Below, one piece after another: positions 1,879 to 63,680 of a stretch of 64,000 nt of DNA; position 1 is the stretch's first letter, and the number at the start of each line of letters is the position of its first letter. The notes beneath the pieces were generated by a model. The model had not been told where the DNA came from and ran no database searches. It saw only the letters and a list, made by a program, of their open reading frames with translations. Source of the stretch: a virus; IMG/VR virus record IMGVR_UViG_3300044641_001047, positions 12,497-76,496 of that record. One strand, written 5' to 3'. The position numbers and the translations under genes are program-made.

Positions 1879-4800
1879 TTAAAGCATACATATTTGGGTG
1901 ATGTCCCCTTTTTTCTCTTCGTCCATTGTGTTATCTAAGAAGACATCTAACTTCTCTATTACAGAATCTATTGGCTTACTTTTTCCTACAACTCTTGGGT
2001 AAAGAGTAGCTCCCCCAACAAGGTGTTTTTTTTCGTTAGTAGTTTTACCTAACACCATATACTTTCCTATTTTTCCATCTTTTGATATACTACCAAGAAT
2101 ATAAACATCAGAGTCTGTTTTAGTTCTAACTACAAGAGCTGAAGGAATAGATGAGTATTCTTCTAAATTGATATCAATTTCTTTATCAGGCTTTCCTACT
2201 TCATCAAAGTTTTTACGTTGTAAAAGGTTACTTCCACCAGGTCTCATCTCCCCAAATATTCTTAGGAATCTAAGCATATCCTCCCCCTCAAAGTACCTAC
2301 CATTAGCCATTTTCATTGCCTGCTCATGAAGATAATCAGAAATGCTTATAGGTTCTAGATCTTCAGCGGTTCTATCCATAGGTTGGGTAAGGAATCTTGG
2401 GGGTAACAAGTCTGCAAAGTTAAATGGAGTTTGCTTAAATCCATTGGCAATAAGTGTATGCATTGCTAATTTATTACCTAAAGTCTTGATATCTTCAACT
2501 CCTTTCTTACGTTCAGCTATTTCTTTTTCTGTTGCCCCCTTTCTAAGTCTTGGTAAAAACTTCTCAGGTCTGTACAACATATCAGTAAGGTCATTGATGA
2601 TTCTATCCTTCTCATTTACTGTATACTGTTGCTGAGCATCAAACTGCAAGCTTCTAAAAGTCTTACTATTCTTGTTATCAGGATCTTCAGTAATCTTTAC
2701 AAAGAACTCATTACCTGCAAGCTTAGGGTATTTCTTTAAAATCATGGACATCTGCTTAAGCAGTGTTGACTTGTTTTTACTTGTACGATAGTTCTCATCA
2801 CTATACCCTTTACCAAAAAATGCTTTGAGTGGAGAGTCCTGCCTTGTAAGAATTGTGAATATTATTGCAGAGTTTATATCTCTGTGCTGATCACTTGTAA
2901 ATGTATTAGTAGGTGGAGCTGCTATCTTTCTCAAAGTATTCTTAAATCCTATGAACTCAGATGATAATGTCATTGGGAACAGTATTGATGCTACCCCTAA
3001 TGTTTCAGATATCATTTTATAGTAGCCTCTCTGTAATCCATATGGAGAATCTTCATCAAGAACTTGTTCGATTATACTCTCTGACATATTTCTTCCGTAT
3101 AGAGCTATAGGGGCATTGTCTACAAATCCATCTTTAGGGTTTGCAAACTTTTCCATTCTCTCCATATAGGCCTGCATAGCTTCTACTCTATTCAAACCAT
3201 CCATGCTATCAGGAGTAATGACCTTAAACATTTCTACAATCTGTCTTCCTCCAGAGTACATCTTCATAAAGTTTCTTAAAGCTACTGCAGGGGGTAGAGT
3301 AAAATTCATTATATCCTCTCTAGACATTGCAGTAGTCCTTTCAATTCTTTTATAATTATTTGCTATCTCAGTCTCTGGGTTTATACCGTGTAGAGCAGCA
3401 GCTTGACGATACCCATTGTTAACCATTGCAAGGTTATTGTTGTACTTATCAGACATTATGTTTACAAAATCTCTGATGATAGGCTGGTTAAGGAAGAAGT
3501 GCATTAACTCTGTATCACCGTAGAAATTAATCCATAGAACTTCTACAGGGAAAGTAACTTCATTATCATTGATGATGTAGTGGAATGGATTCTTAGAAGC
3601 ATCCACGGCAGCATTAAGATATCGAGAGATAATTTTATCTGTAAATTCCAAGTGATCGTATGCTGCAAATGGGTTATCTACTTGAGTAAGAAACTTAGTA
3701 TTTATTTTCTCTCCTGCTATCTTAACAGCAAATGAGTCAAATAGATTTATGTCTAAGTGTTGAGCTACATTCCTTCCTGCAAGAGCATTAGACCACTTAC
3801 CTCTCAGCTTGTTACCAAGAAGGTTTCTAACAGCACTGTTGGTATGGTACATACCCCCTGTAAACATTGGGATATCTTCAAGGTCAGGCATTTTTTCAAG
3901 GATACTGTCTTTGATATTACCAAGTGCAGCTGTGTCCAAAGGGCTAAGAGTTTCAGAGAAGTGAATAGGGCTACTGAGTACAGCCTCCATTGTATCAATG
4001 AAGATATTATTAAGCTGCTTCTCATTTAGTTTTGTAACCAATTCAGGATTGCTGGCAAGTTCTGCATAATTAGCAGATTCTTTAACCATAACCCCATCCT
4101 TCATGCTAACCTCAGGGAAAAGCAAAAACATTTTATCGACGTCAAAGTCAGATCCCATAAGCTTAACAAGCTGTGGTGGGACTACAATTGCTTTAGCATA
4201 ATTATCAGGTAGGACAGCTTTAATCTTTAGAATAACCATAGATGCCTTATCCTGGTTGGGGATACGATAACCAATAATTCTTCTAAGCTCTTCTGGGATG
4301 TTATCTAAATTGATCTCCCCTTCAGGTAAGTTAAACTTTCTAAGTACATCAGCTCTTATCATTATCTCTGCATGTGCCAATCTGACTCCATACTTTGTAT
4401 TGTTTGGATCATCTTCAATCTCCAAGAACTTAAGGGTTTCATTAGTCTCAAACCCACCAAGAGCTGCAGTCTGCACAGCCTCTGTCCCAGATAGCCTTTG
4501 CTTAAATACATTGTTGTTGTATATGCTAAGCAAAGCTGATTGAAACTTTTTACCAAATACAGGGTAGTCAAGTGGAATTGCAAATCTTGGGATAAGAGTA
4601 TCAGGATCTATAGTGATATCAAGAGCATCTAGATAGTTCTGGCTCATATCTCTTTCGATAGCCTGCTTCTCAAGAATGGTACGTATATTTTTAAGCAGTT
4701 CTAGCTTAGCATTTATAAAATCTTCTGAGCTCTTAAGGTGACTGATATTAACCTTACCCTTAACCTTATGCCCTTCTACAAGATTAGCAATTGCTTTACG

Positions 4801-9329: not shown

Positions 9330-12300
9330 TTATTTTTTCTTTTTATTACAAAGTTTATTTACAACTTCCTCTTGTATTTTTTTAGCTTCTTTTTCATTAA
9401 TATCTATATCCAACATTTGTTTTACAAAAAATACAAAAGAGGCATTGTCCATAGCACCCATTTGAATTATTTGAGCTTTTAATTGAGCAGCACCATCACC
9501 CGATGGGCCATTTGAAGCTTTTGCAGATATTATAGATTTTGCAATATTATCCTTAGTAATCTCACCTCCGTCCTCAGTTGAAGTATCTTCATCCTCATCT
9601 TCATCTTCTTCAACTTCTCTTACCTTCTTAGTAATATTCTTTACAGGACTCTTCTTTTTAGAGTGGTTGGCAATAGCTGGATCGGAGCTTTTCTTAGCCT
9701 CTTTGTAGGCAAAGCTTACTTTTTTGTCTAGTACGTCTCCAAAATTAAGATTCAAAGTAAACTTCTTTTCTACAAAGTTACTAACTTTTAAGATAGTTCC
9801 ATCATCATCATACCTTAAAGGTATAAGTAAGGTACTTCCTTTTCTAACCATTGTAGATACATTGTTCTGTTTAGCATGCCCGTTGAACATATAAGCATAA
9901 ACACTTAGCTGTGCACCATGCTGGTCTCTCTTTGATCTACCATACTTAGTCTCCTCGTAGTTTTCAAGTCCAGAAGCTGTAAGAGTTTTTATATCATATA
10001 TACGGTACTCCCCTTTTCTATCCTTAGTAAGAATGTCAAAGGTTCCAGCTATGTTTGGGTAGTTAGGATCAGTGTTGTATACAACCATCTCTACAGCAAT
10101 TACTGTTTCTCCTCTTCCCCTTAGCATGCTTTGGATAGCTTTAGCTTGAGTTATAAGGTCGAGATAAGCTACTGAGGACACACCAGCTGGTTTAGTAGCA
10201 GGCTTACCCATAAGTAGGTTTTCAACTAAAGAGTGTACTAACTTACCAGCAGATGATGAGGCTTTCTGAGTTTCAGCAGATCCAGTAAATGGTTCTGATG
10301 TCATCTTGGATGCCCTTTCGTATTCCTCCCCATTGATAATGTAATGAGTTTCCTCCCCTGTCACGGGATCTTTTTTCATTTCTTCACGGTGTTGATTCTT
10401 CTTTATATCAGTAAGAATCTCTACCATAGGATCCCCTTTCTCCTCTTCTACCTCAGCAATAGTTCCACTAAGTCCTTGGCTTTTAATCTTTTTGCCAACA
10501 ACTACTTTTTCGTCATCTTCTTCTGTCTCTACAGTTTTAGTTCTTCTACGATTGATAGCCTTTTCCAGAGAGCTTGAATTGCTATCAGTATCTTCTTGTT
10601 CTTCTTCCTCTTCCTCCTCTATTCTCTTAGCTACTTCTCCAATTTCGTCATCATCTAGCAAAGCATTAGTAGAGTCAACTTGGTTGTCCTCCTCATCCAT
10701 ATCGGATTCGTTTGTATAATCCTCCTGCTCTTTAACTAAAGGTTCTTGTTTGGTAATCTTAGCTTTAGTTACTGTTCTAGAAGTTGTTGGCTTTTCATTT
10801 TCTGCAGCCTGTGCCTTGAATCCTTTTTCATCTGTAATCTCCCCAAAGTTCATCACCACATCAAAGTATGGGGAGAATGTTTTAGGGTTAAGATACACAT
10901 CAGAGCTAAGTATACCTGAGTGTCCCTGATCTTTTTCCATATCAGAGATTTCATCAGGGTGAGTTAAATAGTCTAAGTAAGAAGCATATACTAAGCCAGT
11001 TACTTTACTTTCGTATTCGGGGTTTTCAGTTAGAAGGTTAATATCTACTTGATACCTTCTCTTCATTATAGCCTCTTTAAATGCAGAAGCTATTGATCCC
11101 ATATGAGCAGTCCAGTCACTTCTTCCTTCTATTGGTTCAAAGTTTAGACCTCCTTCTTCACCTCTTACTGCTTCTACAAATTGGAATTTAACAAAGCTAT
11201 CAGGTTCAGTTAAAGCTAGAGCTAATTGGTCAGAGCTAATAGTAATATAAGTTTCTGCAGAAGGTAGCCAGAAGGTATAGCCTCTTGGAGCTTCTGGGTC
11301 AGACTTCTCACCATATACTTGTTCAAAAATTAGGTTCCTATTTGCATCATCAATAGCAGCTTCTGCAACTTCGTTGAAACCTACAATCTCTGCTACATCT
11401 CCAGCTCTATCATCTGTAATAGCTTCTACTACTGCATTGTATCCAACCTCAGTCATTTTCTTGGTAGTAGCCCTTATATAAGACAGATCTCCATTTGGGG
11501 TACGAACCAAGATTGCCACTTTACCTAAGTCAGCAGTTGACAATCGTGACAGCAAGTCACCTGGGATTGTTTCATCCTCTTTAAGAACATCCCCTCGGTT
11601 TGTCACCTCCCACTTTGGTTCTTTTTTGTAGGTTCTAGCAACAAGCAATGTAGGGGTATAAAGTATATTCCCATCTTCATCTACTGGGACAGGATCAAAG
11701 AAGAATACATTGCCATCCTCAGTCGCTGCATTAGCAATGTTCTGAGAGTCTACATATTTATTAGTAAGAATGGTTGTAGGAATTTTGCCGTTATCCCAAA
11801 GATTGTAGATAGTCTCCCTATCCATAGATCTGCTAGGATTAGAAGGGTTATAACCTTCAAGCAATCCAACTCTTTTAAATCCATCTTTTGTTCTAACTGC
11901 TACAAATATTGGAATGTTTTTCCAGTATTCTGACTCAGATACATTTGGATTATTTTTTACAAATTTCTGCCACCACTCAGTTTCTGGATTAACTTCAAAT
12001 CGTACTTCTGCACCATTTTCTACTATGTCAGAATCAGTCAATAGCTCAGGGAAAATTTGAATTGGAACCCATTTACCATTTTTTAATTCAAACTGTTGTC
12101 TTCCATCTTTGCCATTAGTTCCATAGTAAGAACTATTAGGAATCGGAGTACCATCCTCGTCAACAAGAATATTATCATAACCGTTAGCATACTCATGTTG
12201 GGTTTTAATTACTGCGATGCTACTCTGGTTCTCTGAATTTTTAACTTCTTCATGAACCGTTTTCTTTCTAAATTGAATGTTACCCTCATCCTCTTCTGGA

Positions 12301-15300
12301 TCTGAATCATCAGGCGTCTCTTCTTCTTCCGTTTCAAAACTTTTTGAATTGAATATATCTTGTGTTTCTCCAGTTTCTATGAATACTGGGTTGTCAATTA
12401 TTTCAGGGAGTAATGGTGCTACTTCATTTACGTCCACTGTTTCGCCTTCAGGTACTTGAACAGCTCCTTGATTCGTTGTTCCAGATCCTTGTTCTTGAGC
12501 AAGTTGCGAAGCTCTTTGGGAGTCTTGTACATCTTTGCTAGCTTGACTTGATTTTCTATATTCATACTCTTCGGTTAACTTGTTTTTATGACTCTGTTGA
12601 ATTTCTCTTTCAGCTCTTGCAACTTCTAAATCTTTTGTAAGCTTTTCAATCTTTTCTCCGTTTACAGGAGAAGCCATTCCTAGTTTTATACTTGCATCTA
12701 ATGCTGCAATTTGCTGCTCAAGCCCTATAATAGTTTCGTTTGCAAGATCGATTAAAAGTTCAGCTTCCCCAATTTTATTTTTAATTTCATTCTCAGCTTC
12801 CTCAGACATTTGACCACCTTGATCTTCCGTAGGTTCACTAACAGGAGACAACTGTGTTCTTTTAAAGTAATCTTTAGTTATGGCTTGGAATGCTTTAAGA
12901 GTTGTAGAATACATTGCTCTTGCTCTCTGCACATCTGGATCTTGGTTCATTTCGGCCATGGTCTTACCCTGCCTCATGAACTTCTCCTTAGCCATATTAT
13001 AAACAGAAAGGATGTCAAGAAGATGAGTTCTATGACTATCCATCAACTTCTGTAAAGCTTTATCAGTTATAACATTAGGATCGTACTTAGCCTTACTTCT
13101 TAATGCCTCAGATAAATTTTGCAATGCATTAAGTCTAGATTGAATCTGCTTTCTAAGTTCTACTTCACTAAGTCCTAAGCTTTCTATAGTTCCTTGAGAC
13201 TGATAAGCCATCAGGATTATCTCTGCAAGTTCTTTTGCAACAGTATCTTTAAACTCAACTGTTTGGTTTTGCTCATTGTGCAGTACTACTTGAGATACTA
13301 TAATAGAACCTGTAAGAGCACTAGCGGGTTTATATTCTGTTATACCCTCTGTCTTAATATCTTCTAGCATCTGTGGATAAGATGCAGCATGCCTATCTAT
13401 TGTCTCATCGGATACATTTGCTCTGTTAACTCCTGCTGCGATATCTGCTTTTATTCTTTGTTTAGCTAATTCAGCATTTAAAGGCATTAACTTATACTGA
13501 ATATTAGCACCAGGTATTGCTTTTTTAACAGCCTCTATAAACGGTCTTCTTTTTTCTTTAGTTAAATTGGTGGTATCAAATACCACCTGTTTACCATTCT
13601 TCACAGCTTCTACTGCTCTTTTAGCAGCTTCAATGTAAATTTCTTTATCTTTAGATTTATCATTTATATCTCCTGTAAACTCAGCTCTCATATCATCAGG
13701 AGAAATAACTACTAAATTTTCTTGAGGTAAACTTTTTATAAAAGTAGATTTCCCACTTCCAGAAGTTCCTATAGGTAAAATAATATCAGCTTTAGTAGTC
13801 GTAGAGGTGCTGCTTGTTTTAGGTTTAGAAGAAGTAATCTTTTTACCTAATTGTTGTTCTACATGCTTTCCAATTATGTCAACAAATTCATTTGCTAACT
13901 GATTAGTAAGTGCAGCATATCTTTTTTCTACAGCTACAGTTCTTCTATCAGCAGAAGATATATCAGTAGTATTTATTTTACTTAACTCTCCTGCTAAAGG
14001 TCTTAATGCATCTAGTCTTTTTTTATCCTCTTCACTAAGAAAATCAAACTCATTAAGATTTAAGTCTGCTAATACAATTAAATTATCAGCAACTTTTCCC
14101 ATTGAAGCTTTAAAAGCATTTAATCTACCTTTAGGCCTAGCTCCTTCATAAAAATCAGATGGCAATACTACTTTAGCATTTCCATAGCCATCTAATCTTT
14201 CATTAAGTCCTTCTATAGGTGTTTTTGTGTTATCATCTGCAGCAGGAGTTTCAGACTGCATGTCCCATTCATAGCCATACCTAATAGCATCTACTGGGTT
14301 TTCATTAAGGTTCTGATATACTGTCCCGTTAACTCTTATTGTTCTTCCATCGGTACTAAGTAATGCAAAGCTATTTTCATAAACCTTCCCACTTAAATCT
14401 GGATCTGCTTTCTCATCAGCTTCTTCAGAGAATCCTTTCTTAAGTGCATCTTCTGCTTCTTTCTTAGCAGCTGCTTCAGCAGGAGTTAACTCTCCTTCTT
14501 TTATATCTTTCTGCTCAAGACTTTCATTTTTCTTAGCTTCAAGAACAGCAAGTAGTGCTGCAGCTTTAGCAGGAGATTCTTCTTCAATACTTTCAATATC
14601 TGCAACTAACTCTTCAAGAACCTCCAGTGGGATGTCTTGATAGTCTTTCATGTACTTATCCTCTATAGCCTTAAGCTCTTTATATTTCTTTCTAACCTTA
14701 GCTTTCATTTCAGGACTAAGGTTTTCATGATCTATAAGTTCATCAAGTTCTCTAGTAGAATCTGCATTGTCAACAATTGAGTCAGCTTCTTTATTTGACT
14801 TTGCTACTTTAGCTCGTTGCTCAGCAGCTTGTTTAGCAGCTAGAACAATTTCTCTTTTTTCTGGAGATTTTATCAGCTCGTCAAATGCAGTAGATGCAAG
14901 TTCTCTTGTATATATTCCTGTAATAAAGTCAGCAAGAGCCTTATCAAAGTCCATCTTCTGCAGCTTATCTAAGGTTTCAGATTCTTCTACTGCTGTCCTA
15001 AGAGCTCCAGTTAAACTTTCATTCTCTTTAATATTCTTCTTCTTTGCAGCCTCTTCCGTGGTTGGGTCAGGCTTTGGTTCCCCTTCTTTCTTCTCTTGCT
15101 CCTCTACATCACTAACACTTACGTCAACCAAAGATTTAGGGAGAACTAGATTACCCTGTGCATCTGCTGTTATTTGGTTTCTTTTTATTAGAGTTACAAG
15201 TTTATTTCTGTCAAAATTTTTAAGAGCTGGAGATAGAGATACTAGTTTTTCATATGCATCGTTAATCTCCTCATCTCTAGTCTCCATACTAATCATGTTA

Positions 15301-17270
15301 GTAAGGAGTATATTTTTAAGTCTTTGATTGTATAGATCTTGGGCAGCTTTTTGAATTTTCTGCTCTTTGTTCATGGTTAGTTTAGCAAGTCCAGATTGAT
15401 TAGGGCTCATAAATTGAATAATGTTATCCAATCTTTTCCCCATATCTGAATACTTCTTCATCTCTCCTTTCCACTCTTCTACAATCCCTGACTGAGTTTT
15501 ACCTCCTGATTGCTCCAGTAATGGCTTAGACTTATCATAGCCATTTAAATCCATGAAGTCAGCTTCAGGCATTTTGGCCATGTCATCTAGTTTCTCATAA
15601 GCTAGATCTATAGCATCGAGATTATCAAACATGATTGCATGCTGAGCCATGAAGTTTTTACGTAGCTCGTTTGCAAGCTTGTAGTTACCAAGATCAGTAG
15701 CAGCTTTTAGAGCAGCAGAGAATTGTGCTAATTCCTTTTTCTGCTCAAAGCTCTTTCTCATGTTTAAGAAAGTCTCAGAGTTTGTAATGGCCAACAGCTT
15801 TTCTGTATTAGCTTTAACCATTGCTCTTTGTTTAGCAGCTGTTCCAAATGATGTGCTGGTTGCACCCATACCTCCACCAATAAGAGCACCTAGCAGCATG
15901 CTCTCTATTCCATCTGCAGTTCCAAAGGTTTTAGATAGCCCTCTTACTGCAGCTCCTGTCATATCTTCTACCCCAGAATCAAATTTATTCTTGTAGTAAT
16001 CTATTGCAGTCTCTCCAATCATGAACTGAGCACCTTCTTGGAAAGCCTCTGTTAAAGAATTCTCATAGATAGGGGCTGTATATTTTTGAGCTCTATTTAA
16101 AAATCTTCCAACTCCCGTTGTTGGAAGAGATACTATTCTTTTACCTGCTTGGTCTAAAACAGTTTCTGCTGTAGCTCTTTCCCCAATTTTAACTCCTCTT
16201 GCAGCATTGCCAAACATTAAAAGATTGCTAGTCATAAGAACAGGCATATTCCACCCAAAAGTAAAGTTCTCTACAGCTCTAGCTTCTTCATTTATCCTCT
16301 CTCTATCACTAGCAGGCATATCCTCTAATGACATTCCTGGGTTATTCTCAAGCCACTCAGACTCTCTTTCCTGAATAAATTGTTTAGACTTTTCTCTAGC
16401 TTCTACAGAAGACTCAGCAAGAGACATCATGGCCCCTACTTCTAGAGTTTTAGCAGCATTTAAGGTTCTAGCTATATTCCCATATTTAGCAATATCAGCG
16501 GTAAGTTTTGTACCAGTAGCTATCATTTTAGAGGCAGCATATATATTCTTCATAGCCTCCCCTGTAGACACAAGTTTACCTACTTGTCCTGCTCTTCCTG
16601 CTGCAGCCATAGCTTTACCAGCTAAATTAACACCTCTTCCTAATAGCCCAGCTCCACCACTCATCCATGCAGTTGCTAATGATCCTAGTGAATATCCTAA
16701 TCCATTGGCAAATTTATCTGTCCAAAAGTTAGCACTTCCTAAGTTATCCAGCATGCTACGGTCTGGATCTAACTCTGCTTTAGTGTAGTAGTGTGGAAGG
16801 TTTTCACTCATCCATTCATTTGCACTATCTACACTTCTTCCTACAGGATTATTTGCATATGTACCTCCAGCAAGCATAGAGCCTATTCCCCCGATAATAC
16901 CTATGGTATTTTCTGCTACTGCCCCTACTATAGTGGCCCCCATTTTAAGAGCACCGTATCCTAACTTTTGACCAATGCCTTGGTTCTCTGCTCGAATCTC
17001 ATTCCAGTCTGCATATGGACTAAGAGGGACTTTATAGCTAGCATAGTTAGCTATTGGATCAGTATAGACATTTGTAAGATCTATAGATCGTGCTTGTAAG
17101 TCTAGACCAGAAAGTTCGTATGGAGATTCCTTAGCCTTAGGGGCAAGTGGTTCACCTACAAATTCTGAGAAGCTACTTAGAGCATCTTTTGGCTTAGATA
17201 ATTCTTTTACTGGTAGTCCAGTAAACTTACTAAAACTTTCTAATGGTGCACTTTCTGTTGGTTCTGCCAT
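9330..17270 (-). CDS. Giant ejected (cargo) protein with N-terminal hydrophobic Gly/Ala helices, inserted P-loop kinase domain and C-terminal PD-(D/E)xK nuclease domain
   Basis: 2646 aa. GTSGSGKST...SPDDMR...VVFDTTNL (13330-13790); GKLVH...IAGTFD...IYDIKT...HGAQLSVY (~9750-10350). Position matches the crAss ejection cluster. Confidence 0.85.
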   Translation of the reverse strand: MAEPTESAPLESFSKFTGLPVKELSKPKDALSSFSEFVGEPLAPKAKESPYELSGLDLQARSIDLTNVYTDPIANYASYKVPLSPYADWNEIRAENQGIGQKLGYGALKMGATIVGAVAENTIGIIGGIGSMLAGGTYANNPVGRSVDSANEWMSENLPHYYTKAELDPDRSMLDNLGSANFWTDKFANGLGYSLGSLATAWMSGGAGLLGRGVNLAGKAMAAAGRAGQVGKLVSTGEAMKNIYAASKMIATGTKLTADIAKYGNIARTLNAAKTLEVGAMMSLAESSVEAREKSKQFIQERESEWLENNPGMSLEDMPASDRERINEEARAVENFTFGWNMPVLMTSNLLMFGNAARGVKIGERATAETVLDQAGKRIVSLPTTGVGRFLNRAQKYTAPIYENSLTEAFQEGAQFMIGETAIDYYKNKFDSGVEDMTGAAVRGLSKTFGTADGIESMLLGALIGGGMGATSTSFGTAAKQRAMVKANTEKLLAITNSETFLNMRKSFEQKKELAQFSAALKAATDLGNYKLANELRKNFMAQHAIMFDNLDAIDLAYEKLDDMAKMPEADFMDLNGYDKSKPLLEQSGGKTQSGIVEEWKGEMKKYSDMGKRLDNIIQFMSPNQSGLAKLTMNKEQKIQKAAQDLYNQRLKNILLTNMISMETRDEEINDAYEKLVSLSPALKNFDRNKLVTLIKRNQITADAQGNLVLPKSLVDVSVSDVEEQEKKEGEPKPDPTTEEAAKKKNIKENESLTGALRTAVEESETLDKLQKMDFDKALADFITGIYTRELASTAFDELIKSPEKREIVLAAKQAAEQRAKVAKSNKEADSIVDNADSTRELDELIDHENLSPEMKAKVRKKYKELKAIEDKYMKDYQDIPLEVLEELVADIESIEEESPAKAAALLAVLEAKKNESLEQKDIKEGELTPAEAAAKKEAEDALKKGFSEEADEKADPDLSGKVYENSFALLSTDGRTIRVNGTVYQNLNENPVDAIRYGYEWDMQSETPAADDNTKTPIEGLNERLDGYGNAKVVLPSDFYEGARPKGRLNAFKASMGKVADNLIVLADLNLNEFDFLSEEDKKRLDALRPLAGELSKINTTDISSADRRTVAVEKRYAALTNQLANEFVDIIGKHVEQQLGKKITSSKPKTSSTSTTTKADIILPIGTSGSGKSTFIKSLPQENLVVISPDDMRAEFTGDINDKSKDKEIYIEAAKRAVEAVKNGKQVVFDTTNLTKEKRRPFIEAVKKAIPGANIQYKLMPLNAELAKQRIKADIAAGVNRANVSDETIDRHAASYPQMLEDIKTEGITEYKPASALTGSIIVSQVVLHNEQNQTVEFKDTVAKELAEIILMAYQSQGTIESLGLSEVELRKQIQSRLNALQNLSEALRSKAKYDPNVITDKALQKLMDSHRTHLLDILSVYNMAKEKFMRQGKTMAEMNQDPDVQRARAMYSTTLKAFQAITKDYFKRTQLSPVSEPTEDQGGQMSEEAENEIKNKIGEAELLIDLANETIIGLEQQIAALDASIKLGMASPVNGEKIEKLTKDLEVARAEREIQQSHKNKLTEEYEYRKSSQASKDVQDSQRASQLAQEQGSGTTNQGAVQVPEGETVDVNEVAPLLPEIIDNPVFIETGETQDIFNSKSFETEEEETPDDSDPEEDEGNIQFRKKTVHEEVKNSENQSSIAVIKTQHEYANGYDNILVDEDGTPIPNSSYYGTNGKDGRQQFELKNGKWVPIQIFPELLTDSDIVENGAEVRFEVNPETEWWQKFVKNNPNVSESEYWKNIPIFVAVRTKDGFKRVGLLEGYNPSNPSRSMDRETIYNLWDNGKIPTTILTNKYVDSQNIANAATEDGNVFFFDPVPVDEDGNILYTPTLLVARTYKKEPKWEVTNRGDVLKEDETIPGDLLSRLSTADLGKVAILVRTPNGDLSYIRATTKKMTEVGYNAVVEAITDDRAGDVAEIVGFNEVAEAAIDDANRNLIFEQVYGEKSDPEAPRGYTFWLPSAETYITISSDQLALALTEPDSFVKFQFVEAVRGEEGGLNFEPIEGRSDWTAHMGSIASAFKEAIMKRRYQVDINLLTENPEYESKVTGLVYASYLDYLTHPDEISDMEKDQGHSGILSSDVYLNPKTFSPYFDVVMNFGEITDEKGFKAQAAENEKPTTSRTVTKAKITKQEPLVKEQEDYTNESDMDEEDNQVDSTNALLDDDEIGEVAKRIEEEEEEEQEDTDSNSSSLEKAINRRRTKTVETEEDDEKVVVGKKIKSQGLSGTIAEVEEEKGDPMVEILTDIKKNQHREEMKKDPVTGEETHYIINGEEYERASKMTSEPFTGSAETQKASSSAGKLVHSLVENLLMGKPATKPAGVSSVAYLDLITQAKAIQSMLRGRGETVIAVEMVVYNTDPNYPNIAGTFDILTKDRKGEYRIYDIKTLTASGLENYEETKYGRSKRDQHGAQLSVYAYMFNGHAKQNNVSTMVRKGSTLLIPLRYDDDGTILKVSNFVEKKFTLNLNFGDVLDKKVSFAYKEAKKSSDPAIANHSKKKSPVKNITKKVREVEEDEDEDEDTSTEDGGEITKDNIAKSIISAKASNGPSGDGAAQLKAQIIQMGAMDNASFVFFVKQMLDIDINEKEAKKIQEEVVNKLCNKKKK
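12428..12565 (-). CDS. Putative overprinted 45-aa basic helical protein nested in the 2646-aa gene
   Basis: Alternative frame MNIENQVKLAKMYKTPKELRNLLKNKDLEQRIKELFKYLKAKQWT*; A-rich upstream sequence with A at -3; the host frame here is an S/Q-rich linker. Confidence 0.45.
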   Translation of the reverse strand: MNIENQVKLAKMYKTPKELRNLLKNKDLEQRIKELFKYLKAKQWT

Positions 17271-60592: not shown

Positions 60593-60622
60593 AAAAGGGG
60601 AACATTCGTTCCCCTTTTTTTT
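60593..60622 (+). terminator. Rho-independent terminator
   Basis: AAAAGGGGAAC-ATTC-GTTCCCC followed by T8. Confidence 0.8.
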
Positions 60623-61814: not shown

Positions 61815-62384
61815 ATGACAAGAGAAAGAGCTAAAGAACTTATCCCTGTATATACTGCATGGGTTGAAGGCAAGACCGTAATGTACCAAGATCATCACGG
61901 AGAATGGAGAGAGATAGATCACTCCATTGGATTAGGTATGCATCCCTCTAAGTATAAAGTAGTAGAGGACGAAGGTGATGGCATCATGCCTGAAGAACCT
62001 GTGGAGTCTTACAAAGATGAACAGTGGTTCATTGATATGGTTAATGAAGATGCTAAATCAGATGCTGAATACTACGGCAATGATTCTCGCGAACGTGCTG
62101 ATGTACCAGAGTACATCGTTGCATCTACTAGTTATGATGCTCGTGAGACATATGTATTCGAAGCTACTGCTGATGGTAAGATAGTAACTTATGATGAGTA
62201 TGGTGGATTAGCAGAAAGATGGGGTGATACTAATTGGTATAATCCTGAAGCTGCTGTTAAATCATGCATGCCGAATACATACCATGCAGTATCTTCTAAA
62301 GGTAACTCTGTCTTATTCAAGATAGTTACACCTGATGAGTGCACTTATTTCGATGGTGATGAATCAGATAGAATCAGCTACTAA
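61815..62384 (+). CDS. Hypothetical protein
   Basis: 189 aa, acidic; MTRERAKELIPVYTAWVEGKTV N-terminus. Confidence 0.65.
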   Translation: MTRERAKELIPVYTAWVEGKTVMYQDHHGEWREIDHSIGLGMHPSKYKVVEDEGDGIMPEEPVESYKDEQWFIDMVNEDAKSDAEYYGNDSRERADVPEYIVASTSYDARETYVFEATADGKIVTYDEYGGLAERWGDTNWYNPEAAVKSCMPNTYHAVSSKGNSVLFKIVTPDECTYFDGDESDRISY

Positions 62385-62385
62385 T

Positions 62386-62754
62386 ATGAAGACACTTACC
62401 TACATCAAGAGAGTTGAGATAGAAGAAACAATACCGTTTCCTATCATCACATTTGTTGCTGAGAAAGTGCGAGTTTGTACAGGAGATAGCTCATGGTTTG
62501 ACATGGGCTATACTCCTAGACTCGATGGTCTAACACTACATCAGTATCGTAAACTTCATAATGCTTGGGATAGAGATATCGAGAAAGCCTTAGAAGAATA
62601 TGTAAAGACTACATATAATCTAAGTAGTGGATGGGGTTATATAGATCACCATGTTTATTCAGCTAAACAACTTGGGATGCCTGACCTCCCCAAAGTTGAT
62701 CCAAAGTTTAACGATGATCATGCTGATCTAGTTAGAATGTTTAAAGGGGCTTAG
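62386..62754 (+). CDS. Hypothetical protein
   Basis: Start revised to MKTLTYIK, immediately after the upstream stop. Confidence 0.6.
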   Translation: MKTLTYIKRVEIEETIPFPIITFVAEKVRVCTGDSSWFDMGYTPRLDGLTLHQYRKLHNAWDRDIEKALEEYVKTTYNLSSGWGYIDHHVYSAKQLGMPDLPKVDPKFNDDHADLVRMFKGA

Positions 62755-62763
62755 TCCCCTTTT
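62743..62763 (+). terminator. Terminator-like hairpin overlapping ribozyme P1
   Basis: AAAGGGG-CTTAGT-CCCCTTTT. Confidence 0.55.
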
Positions 62764-62820
62764 ACTAATGCAGCCAGGTAACACTGAAGGTCACAAGCCC
62801 TTTAATGCAGAGTGGTAAAA
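62760..62820 (+). ncRNA. Twister self-cleaving ribozyme, type P1
   Basis: P1 TTTTAC/GTAAAA; U|AA site (62766/62767); P2 TGCA/TGCA; GC; P3 CAG/CTG; P4 AAGG/CCTT with loop TCACAAGC; GA then GTG pairing with CAC (T1); GC/GC (T2). Confidence 0.88.
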
Positions 62821-62860
62821 CAATTTATTCATTTAATTTATTATTTAAATCATCAAAATC

Positions 62861-63466
62861 ATGATGAACAACACAATCAACAGTGGCTCGTTGCAGGGAT
62901 TGCAAGCGGGTCAAACCCTTTTACTCCAAGCTCGTAAGGTTAATGGAGACAAGATTCAATTGGAATTTGCTGAGATTGTCAAAACACAATCTAATGCAGC
63001 AAATCCACTTGCTCTATTTAACAAGTCAGACGACCGTTTCTCACAAGGCAATGGTGCACGTCGTGCTTGGTTAACTGCTGAAGCTAAGGATGCTTCAGTT
63101 TATCTCAACATCAACCTGATGGATGATGCTGACTGGCAAGTTGACCAAATGGGAAGAGAGATTCTCCCACTGAATGTCATCAATCCAGTAGCTCACATCA
63201 ATGGTGAAGCATTCCCATTGAAGGTGCAAGTTGAGGAGACTGTTACTCCTACGGATTGGCAGGCAAACAACATCCCAACTGCGGCTAAACGTCGTGGTAA
63301 AGATGGGGACTTCATCACTCACCAAGGTATGTATATCTTTGCTAACACTCGTGTAGTGTTTAACAAAGCTACTCACGTATTCCTTGAGGCTGATGCTGTT
63401 AAGTCTACTACAACTGGAGGTATCCGTGTAGGTGAAGACTTTGACTCTAGTCCGTTCTTCAGCTAA
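62861..63466 (+). CDS. Putative single-stranded DNA-binding protein
   Basis: 201 aa, beta-rich; acidic/aromatic C-terminus EDFDSSPFFS; early region. Confidence 0.45.
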   Translation: MMNNTINSGSLQGLQAGQTLLLQARKVNGDKIQLEFAEIVKTQSNAANPLALFNKSDDRFSQGNGARRAWLTAEAKDASVYLNINLMDDADWQVDQMGREILPLNVINPVAHINGEAFPLKVQVEETVTPTDWQANNIPTAAKRRGKDGDFITHQGMYIFANTRVVFNKATHVFLEADAVKSTTTGGIRVGEDFDSSPFFS

Positions 63467-63479
63467 TCATAGCTGAGTA

Positions 63480-63562
63480 AATCAGGTAGCTCAACTGGTA
63501 GAGCATAACGAGTTTTGTACTATTCTCGTTAAGGTGTGGGTTCGAATCCCACCCTGATTTCA
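63480..63562 (+). tRNA. tRNA-like RNA with enlarged, non-canonical anticodon arm (isotype undetermined)
   Basis: Acceptor AATCAGG/CCTGATT; D-arm GCTC-AACTGGTA-GAGC; T-arm GTGGG-TTCGAAT-CCCAC; anticodon arm 26 nt (7-bp stem, 12-nt loop). Confidence 0.7.
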
Positions 63563-63564
63563 TT

Positions 63565-63680
63565 AGTTGTAATAGTTTAATTGCTGGTAAACAAACAAGC
63601 CAGATTCAGGTGAAAAACTAATCCTGACAATTAAGTAGGAGTGAGATCCTATTATCCTACTCAAGGATACTATTGCAACT
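63565..63680 (+). ncRNA. Candidate multi-junction structured RNA
   Basis: 12-bp closing stem, nested three-way junction, additional hairpin and possible pseudoknot. Confidence 0.5.

Follow-up and report, generated by a model that had tools for sequence, protein, structure and literature searches.

What might a self-cleaving ribozyme do between two small genes of a bacteriophage? This question is raised by a 64-kb stretch of viral DNA, here called the window, which is the final 64 kb of a 76.5-kb IMG/VR viral contig (IMGVR_UViG_3300044641_001047, positions 12,497 to 76,496). Small plus-strand genes form a short block at the contig end; within it, a hairpin and a twister ribozyme lie between an open reading frame (ORF) of 139 amino acids (ORF139, 62335-62754) and one of 201 amino acids (ORF201, 62861-63466), and a tRNA-like gene (63480-63561) comes next. 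An initial annotation had described the element as a complete twister fused to a terminator and generating the 5′ end of an mRNA for a single-stranded DNA-binding (SSB)-like protein. The explanation that we favor, and hold to be probable though well short of certain, is that a functional type-P1 twister with the optional stem P0 heads a mobile cassette of a freshwater crAss-like phage, the cassette comprising P0, the twister, ORF201, and the tRNA-like gene. The twister probably cuts a transcript shared by the two small genes. The finding is a twister with known optional parts, and the kind of element is unchanged.

The claim of a complete twister was borne out: helices P1 to P4, both pseudoknots (T1 and T2), the cleavage site U62766|A62767, and G62810-A62811 all lie where the initial annotation had placed them. 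All of these features are on the plus strand. The 5′ strand of P1, UUUUAC (62760-62765), includes the U-run of the preceding hairpin (62760-62763), as had been claimed, and pairs with GUAAAA (62815-62820); the assignment follows from the sequence, the Rfam alignment, and pair counts (95% of cells paired), and the first three U's also engage in A-U pairs of P0. The predicted cut between U62766 and A62767 aligns to the invariant UAA of the Rfam twister-P1 family (RF03160). P2 is formed by two UGCA strands, one at 62769-62772, invariant in seven relatives, and the other at 62806-62809, placed by the Rfam alignment and pair counts. Next come GC (62773-62774), the 5′ side of T2, which pairs with G62797-C62798 in loop L4, and the P3 hairpin CAG/CUG (62775-62786), in which the Rfam alignment gives three pairs (C62775-G62777 with C62784-G62786) and a 6-nucleotide (nt) loop. 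P4, AAGG/CCUU (62787-62802; A62787-G62790 with C62799-U62802), carries L4, UCACAAGC, whose CAC (62792-62794) pairs with G62812-U62813-G62814 to form T1. These three residues close the GAGUG segment (62810-62814), which aligns to GAGGG of RF03160 and opens with the conserved guanine, G62810, and A62811. A 40-nt, A/U-rich leader without a Shine-Dalgarno sequence (62821-62860) leads to ORF201.

All of the conserved twister nucleotides are present, namely UAA at the cut, GCC after P2, U-C-N-C-A-A-G-C in L4, AA before the P2 return strand, and G-A after it. Departures from the consensus are confined to paired positions, and every one is compensated. Twisters cleave at a U-A site, P1 is dispensable for cleavage, P3 is optional, and roles have been described for the active-site guanine and the adenine 3′ of the cut (PMC6154101). 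The search with the Rfam twister-P1 model, which the initial annotation had proposed as a check, returned a full-length alignment (model positions 1-68) at 62762-62818 with 48.1 bits, corresponding to E = 6.1e-10 in a 301-nt search and 1.3e-7 over the whole window and all 4227 families. Because this score lies below the curated gathering score of 67.2 bits, which is an operational cut-off and not a structural feature, a standard scan misses the twister: the default Rfam scan at the gathering threshold reports the tRNA only, and the twister surfaces with E-value thresholds. No other ribozyme match was found in the window or in the 76.5-kb contig when all Rfam families were searched.

Comparison with characterized type-P1 twisters (RF03160; e.g., Oryza sativa Osa-1-4, PDB 4OJI) reveals the same order of elements, that is, P1, U|A, P2, an optional P3, P4, and the return strands. 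The L4 motif UCNCAAGC, both pseudoknots, and the G-A after P2 are also shared, and the upstream hairpin resembles the optional P0. In the window, however, T1 is CAC/GUG instead of CCC/GGG, one C-G pair being replaced by A-U; P1 is rich in A and U, P3 has three pairs, and the linker between P4 and P2 comprises 3 nt. The window copy also differs in its setting, a crAss-like freshwater phage, and in its score of 48 bits, below 67.2 as for every tested copy of this viral subtype.

Is the fold maintained by selection? The downstream protein ORF201 was used to fetch 27 related viral loci (46-93% identity), and 11 of the 27 carry the ribozyme at the same place (L002-L009, L014, and L027), giving seven distinct sequences. 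In these seven copies, 96% of cells are paired, both pseudoknots included, compared with 30-46% for slid partners. Nine pairs changed on both sides, two of them in T1 and one in T2, a count that 0 of 500 shuffles match, and compensatory changes were found in P1, P3, and P4. Three of four P3 pairs are compensated among the relatives (L008 has CAUC-GAAA-GAUG), as are two P4 pairs in L008 and L015 (AGAG/CUCU in L008). For T1, where all cells are paired, the window has CAC/GUG, L015 CCA/UGG, and the Rfam consensus CCC/GGG, with two compensated pairs; the T2 pair G62773-C62798 becomes A-U in L009. The same T2 pair was followed over 86 distinct viral cores, obtained with a search pattern that permitted every T2 combination: 80 have G-C, six have A-U, and none has a mismatch. 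P4 is fully paired in 76 of the 86 cores and occurs in 24 distinct strand combinations. Collectively, these sequence data indicate that the element is a genuine type-P1 twister under selection for its fold.

More than 113 viral contigs match the search pattern for this twister subtype. In each of four related genomes, of which three are complete, there is exactly one twister, in the same cassette and with scores of 52-59 bits; a more distant related genome has no copy. At the Rfam gathering threshold, none of the subtype's twister-P1 copies in 13 further viral loci is reported (L030, L033, L049, L055, L079, L088, L095, L100, L103, L111, L117, L135, and L136). The same scan does report hammerhead II (two in L033), twister-P5 (L136), and RAGATH-28 (L030 and L033). 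Their presence in loci with twisters of this subtype is that of the known ribozyme-rich phage neighborhood. The RF03160 cut-off of 67.2 bits appears to be too strict for viral copies.

Relatives that carry the same gene can lack the twister (L010-L013 and L018-L026), and an Rfam search of these twister-less relatives gave nothing at the equivalent position. A second twister-P1 subtype, with 57 bits and T1 as CCA/UGG, lies one gene upstream of the ORF201 homologue in two loci (L015:1429-1493 and L017:2365-2429, plus strand), and hence the position of the ribozyme in the small-gene block varies among relatives. Where the window has its twister, L010 (960-1058), L015 (1965-2065), and L017 share a conserved hairpin; its loop, UCUCUGU, could pair with the complementary ACAGAGA some 20 nt further downstream in a 7-bp pseudoknot. 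The stem of this hairpin is compensated (CUGCAGG/CCUGCAG in L010 and CUGUAGG/CCUACAG in L015), and the structure has no Rfam match at E ≤ 0.1. A pistol-like reading of it was dropped since no conserved P2 or P3 is visible. L010 also has a group I intron match (3483-3698, plus strand; 53.2 bits, gathering score 50) approximately 1.8 kb downstream of the ORF201 homologue.

We now turn to the hairpin directly 5′ of P1. It pairs AAAGGGG with CCCCUUU around the loop CUUAGU (62743-62762, plus strand; A62743-G62749 with C62756-U62762), has an RNAfold energy of -8.9 kcal/mol, and both abuts and overlaps the 5′ strand of P1, so that its last three U's are the outer P1 pairs. The TAG stop codon of ORF139 (62752-62754) is in its loop. 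The GGGG/CCCC stem is retained in L008 and L014 with three different loops. Of 98 distinct viral copies of the subtype, 66 carry a GC hairpin (at least four pairs, at least three of them G-C) that ends no more than 6 nt before the cut; the corresponding figures are 11% for random positions and 12% for matched positions behind the ends of other ORFs. The gap between hairpin and P1 is -3 to +1 nt in 54 of the 66, and of the 50 cases with an ORF upstream, 28 have the stop codon of that ORF inside the hairpin, as the window does. Roth et al. reportedly placed P0 5′ of P1 in their 2014 work. A review, in the part that cites the original description, gives the optional stems P0, P3, and P5 as present in 21%, 78%, and 1% of twisters (PMC6154101). 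Taken together, the enrichment of such hairpins at twisters, the rarity of U-runs (see below), and the existence of a known optional P0 make it simpler, and in our opinion best, to read the hairpin at 62743-62762 as the optional P0 stem of the twister. Hatchet ribozymes provide a parallel: in about 90% of environmental hatchets, P1 is preceded by a P0 that is reported to make no contribution to cleavage (PMC10761166). Like the hairpin in the window, this is an accessory hairpin just upstream of a ribozyme and is kept on the upstream product; the hatchet, however, is a different ribozyme class, and the hairpin in the window also holds the upstream stop codon and a U-run.

The initial annotation had instead called the twister "fused to a terminator", and part of that description stands. 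An intrinsic terminator is a GC-rich stem-loop with a U-rich tract of approximately 7-9 nt directly behind it. A simple scan lists the hairpin as terminator-like, its tail CUUUUACU having five T's in eight positions, and the U-run is indeed shared with P1. On this reading, the hairpin and its U-run would be a working intrinsic terminator, the twister a fail-safe that cuts read-through RNA at nearly the same position, and ORF201 would be expressed only from processed read-through RNA. The retention of the U-run in the close relatives (L002-L008, L014, and L027) and the lack of a promoter-like site between the twister and the ATG fit this model. Against the model, the hairpin is weak, with only four consecutive U's that double as a P1 strand, and canonical strong terminators occur in the same block. 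The one at 60593-60618, which scores on both strands, has on the plus strand an 11-pair stem and eight T's, with A's and a T-run on its flanks, and is far stronger than the hairpin at the twister. Moreover, at least four T's in the next 8 nt are found in just 10 of the 66 subtype hairpins, and two such T's belong to the invariant U|AAU. The hairpin in the window thus has the GC stem-loop and subsequent U's of a Rho-independent terminator, but the equivalent hairpins of most other twisters lack a U-run. In L009, no hairpin abuts the twister, and a distinct terminator is found about 20 nt upstream. In the window clade, the U-run may merely be the A/U-rich P1 of an A/T-rich genome. Although we regard a working terminator with a fail-safe twister as unlikely, it can coexist with the explanation that we favor, and the P0 stem may have a weak terminator activity in addition.

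That P0 and the twister belong with the genes downstream is suggested by where homology starts and stops. In blastn comparisons with L008, L014, and L027, homology begins at 62736-62742, the 5′ edge of P0, and other genes replace ORF139 while the hairpin and the twister are retained; with L009 it begins at 62761. Homology ends right after the tRNA-like gene (63551-63565) in most relatives and at 63486 in L008. The twister-less relatives L010, L011, and L013 align only from 62827-62841, that is, over the last 20-35 nt or so of the leader. With homology starting at the 5′ edge of the hairpin and ending after the tRNA-like gene, P0, the twister, ORF201, and the tRNA-like gene behave as one cassette, of which the ribozyme is an optional 5′ cap. 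A survey of 84 viral loci gave 56 pairs sharing the downstream but not the upstream gene, 42 of which break at the P0 edge, and 13 pairs sharing the upstream gene only; the pairs are not independent, and these counts are therefore to be read qualitatively.

Twisters of the subtype are found in narrow intervals between small genes of the same orientation: the stop codon of the first gene usually ends 10-20 nt ahead of the cut, and the start codon of the second lies 14-50 nt beyond the core. The genes downstream of 62 other viral twisters are diverse (regulators, an antitoxin, and FtsK-like, Gam, and helicase proteins), and no family is common to them, which indicates that the ribozyme is not tied to one gene. 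In seven loci (L029, L042, L047, L065, L121, L128, and L139), the 3′ strand of P1 (GAGAGGAG...) is the ribosome-binding site, approximately 14 nt before the ATG; the formation of P1 and its release after cleavage could therefore gate translation there. These loci belong to phages that use Shine-Dalgarno sequences, and the observation does not apply to the window, which has none.

How, then, would the twister act? The plus-strand gene block would be transcribed into a polycistronic RNA, in which the region 62760-62820 would fold and cut itself between U62766 and A62767. The upstream ORF139 mRNA would then end with the P0 hairpin and a tail of 4-7 nt bearing a 2′,3′-cyclic phosphate. Bacterial 3′ exonucleases load poorly on a hairpin with a short cyclic-phosphate tail, and poor loading would be expected here as well. 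The ORF201 mRNA would start at A62767 with a 5′-OH, followed by the compact pseudoknotted body of the ribozyme and then by the 40-nt leader, which is taken to be unstructured. As a consequence of self-cleavage, the output of the cassette would be uncoupled from whichever gene recombination had put upstream, as with a natural version of the RiboJ insulator. The sequences themselves show how the ribozyme is built, its conservation and covariation, the enrichment of P0, and where the cassette begins and ends; that the RNA is cut in vivo, what becomes of both products, and the role as an insulator are what we infer for this locus.

Two systems help to place this proposal. RiboJ, reported by Lou et al. 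in 2012, is a synthetic ribozyme insulator built from an engineered hammerhead, and its hairpin follows the ribozyme. In both cases, a self-cleaving ribozyme between variable upstream sequence and a gene would give the mRNA a constant 5′ end; in the window, however, the twister is natural, its hairpin is upstream, and the insulating effect is one that we propose. In the early genes of phage T7, intercistronic cuts by RNase III leave a protective 3′ hairpin on the upstream mRNA. The cuts proposed here would likewise be intercistronic and made in a polycistronic phage transcript, but a host enzyme makes them in T7, whereas in the window the RNA would cut itself and leave a 2′,3′-cyclic phosphate and a 5′-OH. 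Processing of polycistronic transcripts has been suggested before, without proof, for bacterial twisters and hammerheads, the function of which is still open (PMC6765202).

Contigs assembled from four metatranscriptome runs match ORF201 and a portion of ORF139 with approximately 90-99% identity; since RNA libraries may contain DNA, this coverage is no proof that ORF201 is transcribed. The region 62591-62782 is not bridged by any of these contigs. Two of them, which come from separate studies, stop near 62780 and 62789, at a distance of 13-22 nt past the predicted cut; this is no evidence either way, because contigs cannot show RNA ends, these two stop at different places, and the same reservation about DNA applies.

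Several points weigh against the explanation of a functional twister heading a mobile cassette. The Rfam score is below the gathering threshold. The P4-P2 linker (UAA) is short and P3 has just three pairs, two traits that other natural copies have as well. As to the cassette boundary, the locus pairs lack independence, as mentioned above, and similar GC-rich P0 sequences alone could carry BLAST alignments as far as the P0 edge. The review (PMC6154101) gives the existence and frequency of P0 but not its placement 5′ of P1. Finally, a 5′-OH may stabilize or destabilize an mRNA depending on the RNases of the host.

This last point leads to a model in which the ribozyme acts as a negative control, the 5′-OH exposed by cleavage being attacked by host RNases with the result that expression of ORF201 and the tRNA-like gene is lowered. 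The glmS ribozyme of Bacillus sets a precedent, for a passage in PMC6765202 cites RNase J1 attack after its cleavage, and an optional element, missing in relatives with the same gene, would suit such a role. Cleavage here would be constitutive, however, as no ligand domain is present, and without a ligand domain there would be no regulation. The ribozyme also travels with the downstream gene, which would be odd for an element that solely harms that gene. The contigs from RNA libraries that cover ORF201 would speak against lowered expression as well, although with their possible DNA content they do not demonstrate transcription. On these grounds, negative control seems to us quite improbable.

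More improbable still is that the P0-twister unit, whether it cleaves or not, is a passenger that spreads with mosaic cassettes or marks recombination joints, with no benefit to the phage. The unit is present as one copy per genome, is missing in some relatives, and sits at homology breakpoints, and the flanking genes are diverse over the subtype. A passenger would not, however, be expected to experience strong purifying selection on its structure, with compensatory changes in P1, P3, P4, and both pseudoknots, or to be placed precisely between a stop codon and the next start codon.

The minimum free energy (MFE) fold of 62740-62825 is no better than that of shuffled sequences (z = -0.41), but MFE folding is blind to pseudoknots, and the value is uninformative and was not used as evidence. 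A chance resemblance, in which a terminator hairpin happens to adjoin an unrelated twister-looking sequence, could appeal to this value and to the score under the gathering threshold, but as far as sequence evidence goes it is refuted by the E-value over the window, the full set of conserved nucleotides, the covariation in the seven copies, which extends to both pseudoknots, and the T2 counts in 86 cores.

Regarding the genes of the cassette, ORF201 is a conserved phage protein, found at the 27 related loci, and has no sequence or profile match in Pfam, PHROG, or PDB. Its AlphaFold model has a predicted local distance difference test (pLDDT) score of 77, and nothing annotated matched significantly in ESM Atlas, Foldseek (PDB and BFVD), or a wide VIA-align search. 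Among annotated Foldseek rows, the best are DUF669 and phage SSBs with E-values of 0.015-0.3, and VIA-align gives Z ≤ 3.3; a match at E 1e-15 does exist, but to an unnamed viral protein. The label "SSB-like" is hence neither borne out nor refuted, as there is no sequence family match and the OB-fold or SSB rows are weak and non-significant (E > 0.01, Z ≤ 3.3).

The tRNA-like gene (plus strand) matches the Rfam tRNA model with 57 bits and a 16-nt insert, and ARAGORN reports it as "tRNA-???". Sixteen nucleotides stand in place of the 7-nt anticodon loop, and the resulting 12-nt loop includes the heptamer UUUGUAC. In L019, a canonical tRNA about 120 nt downstream of the homologous gene has UUUGUAC as its loop. 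On the strength of this common heptamer, the gene seems to be a derived tRNA whose anticodon arm has been enlarged. ORF139, upstream of the twister, has no match in Pfam or PHROG.

As to the phage itself, near-identical DNA is present in lake and freshwater metagenomes, and blastn against deposited phage genomes gave no match, leaving no cultured relative as a source of annotation. For TerL, the PHROG match is phrog_6681 (E 5e-130), and for the major head protein it is phrog_11589 (E 2e-87). Both families are crAss-like types, and the DNA is probably that of a freshwater crAss-like phage. A crAss-like phage with a virion RNA polymerase would also be expected to encode a giant protein with the catalytic motif DFDxD. 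An ORF of 2482 amino acids carries the motif DFDVD at residue 1727; it has no sequence match in PHROG, Pfam, or PDB, and this motif is its sole identifier as a putative RNA polymerase. In phage phi14:2, gp66 is responsible for the early genes, and the 5′ ends of early transcripts have no common promoter motif (bioRxiv 10.1101/2020.03.07.982082). The idea that a virion RNA polymerase might transcribe the gene block with the twister is an analogy with phi14:2 and is unsupported. Adjoining the DFDVD ORF is an ORF of 2646 amino acids (9330-17270, minus strand), residues 1162-1325 of which are polynucleotide-kinase-like (phrog_505, E 2.3e-13). The occurrence in one genome of a kinase for 5′-OH ends and a ribozyme making such ends is suggestive.

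In the literature searched, we found no report of a twister in the crAss-like phage group. Likewise, we found no description of a hairpin-twister unit as a cassette boundary or protective end, in a search that did not include key primary twister papers, so that an earlier description is possible.

What does this locus mean for phage biology? First, the gathering threshold of the Rfam twister-P1 family misses an entire viral subtype with members in over 100 viral contigs, and phage annotations consequently under-report such ribozymes. Second, the role of thousands of self-cleaving ribozymes in bacteria and phages is still open (PMC6765202), and the locus offers a natural test case: a single copy per genome lies between two small genes, with the upstream stop inside an accessory hairpin, at the recombination boundary of a conserved cassette whose gene is carried by relatives without the ribozyme. 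The placement at the cassette boundary, together with the stop codon in P0, leads to a concrete and testable idea on the role of phage twisters. Tentatively, and aware that it may well prove wrong, we suggest that the P0-twister unit could be a natural portable insulator at the 5′ boundary of exchangeable phage cassettes. Recombination would occur at the P0 edge, cleavage would free the cassette mRNA, and the neighboring gene would receive a hairpin-protected end. In this phage, the 2646-amino-acid protein, which may be a virion protein, might use its polynucleotide-kinase-like domain to deal with the resulting 5′-OH and 2′,3′-cyclic phosphate ends. If true, this portable-insulator reading would give a biological role to many orphan phage ribozymes.

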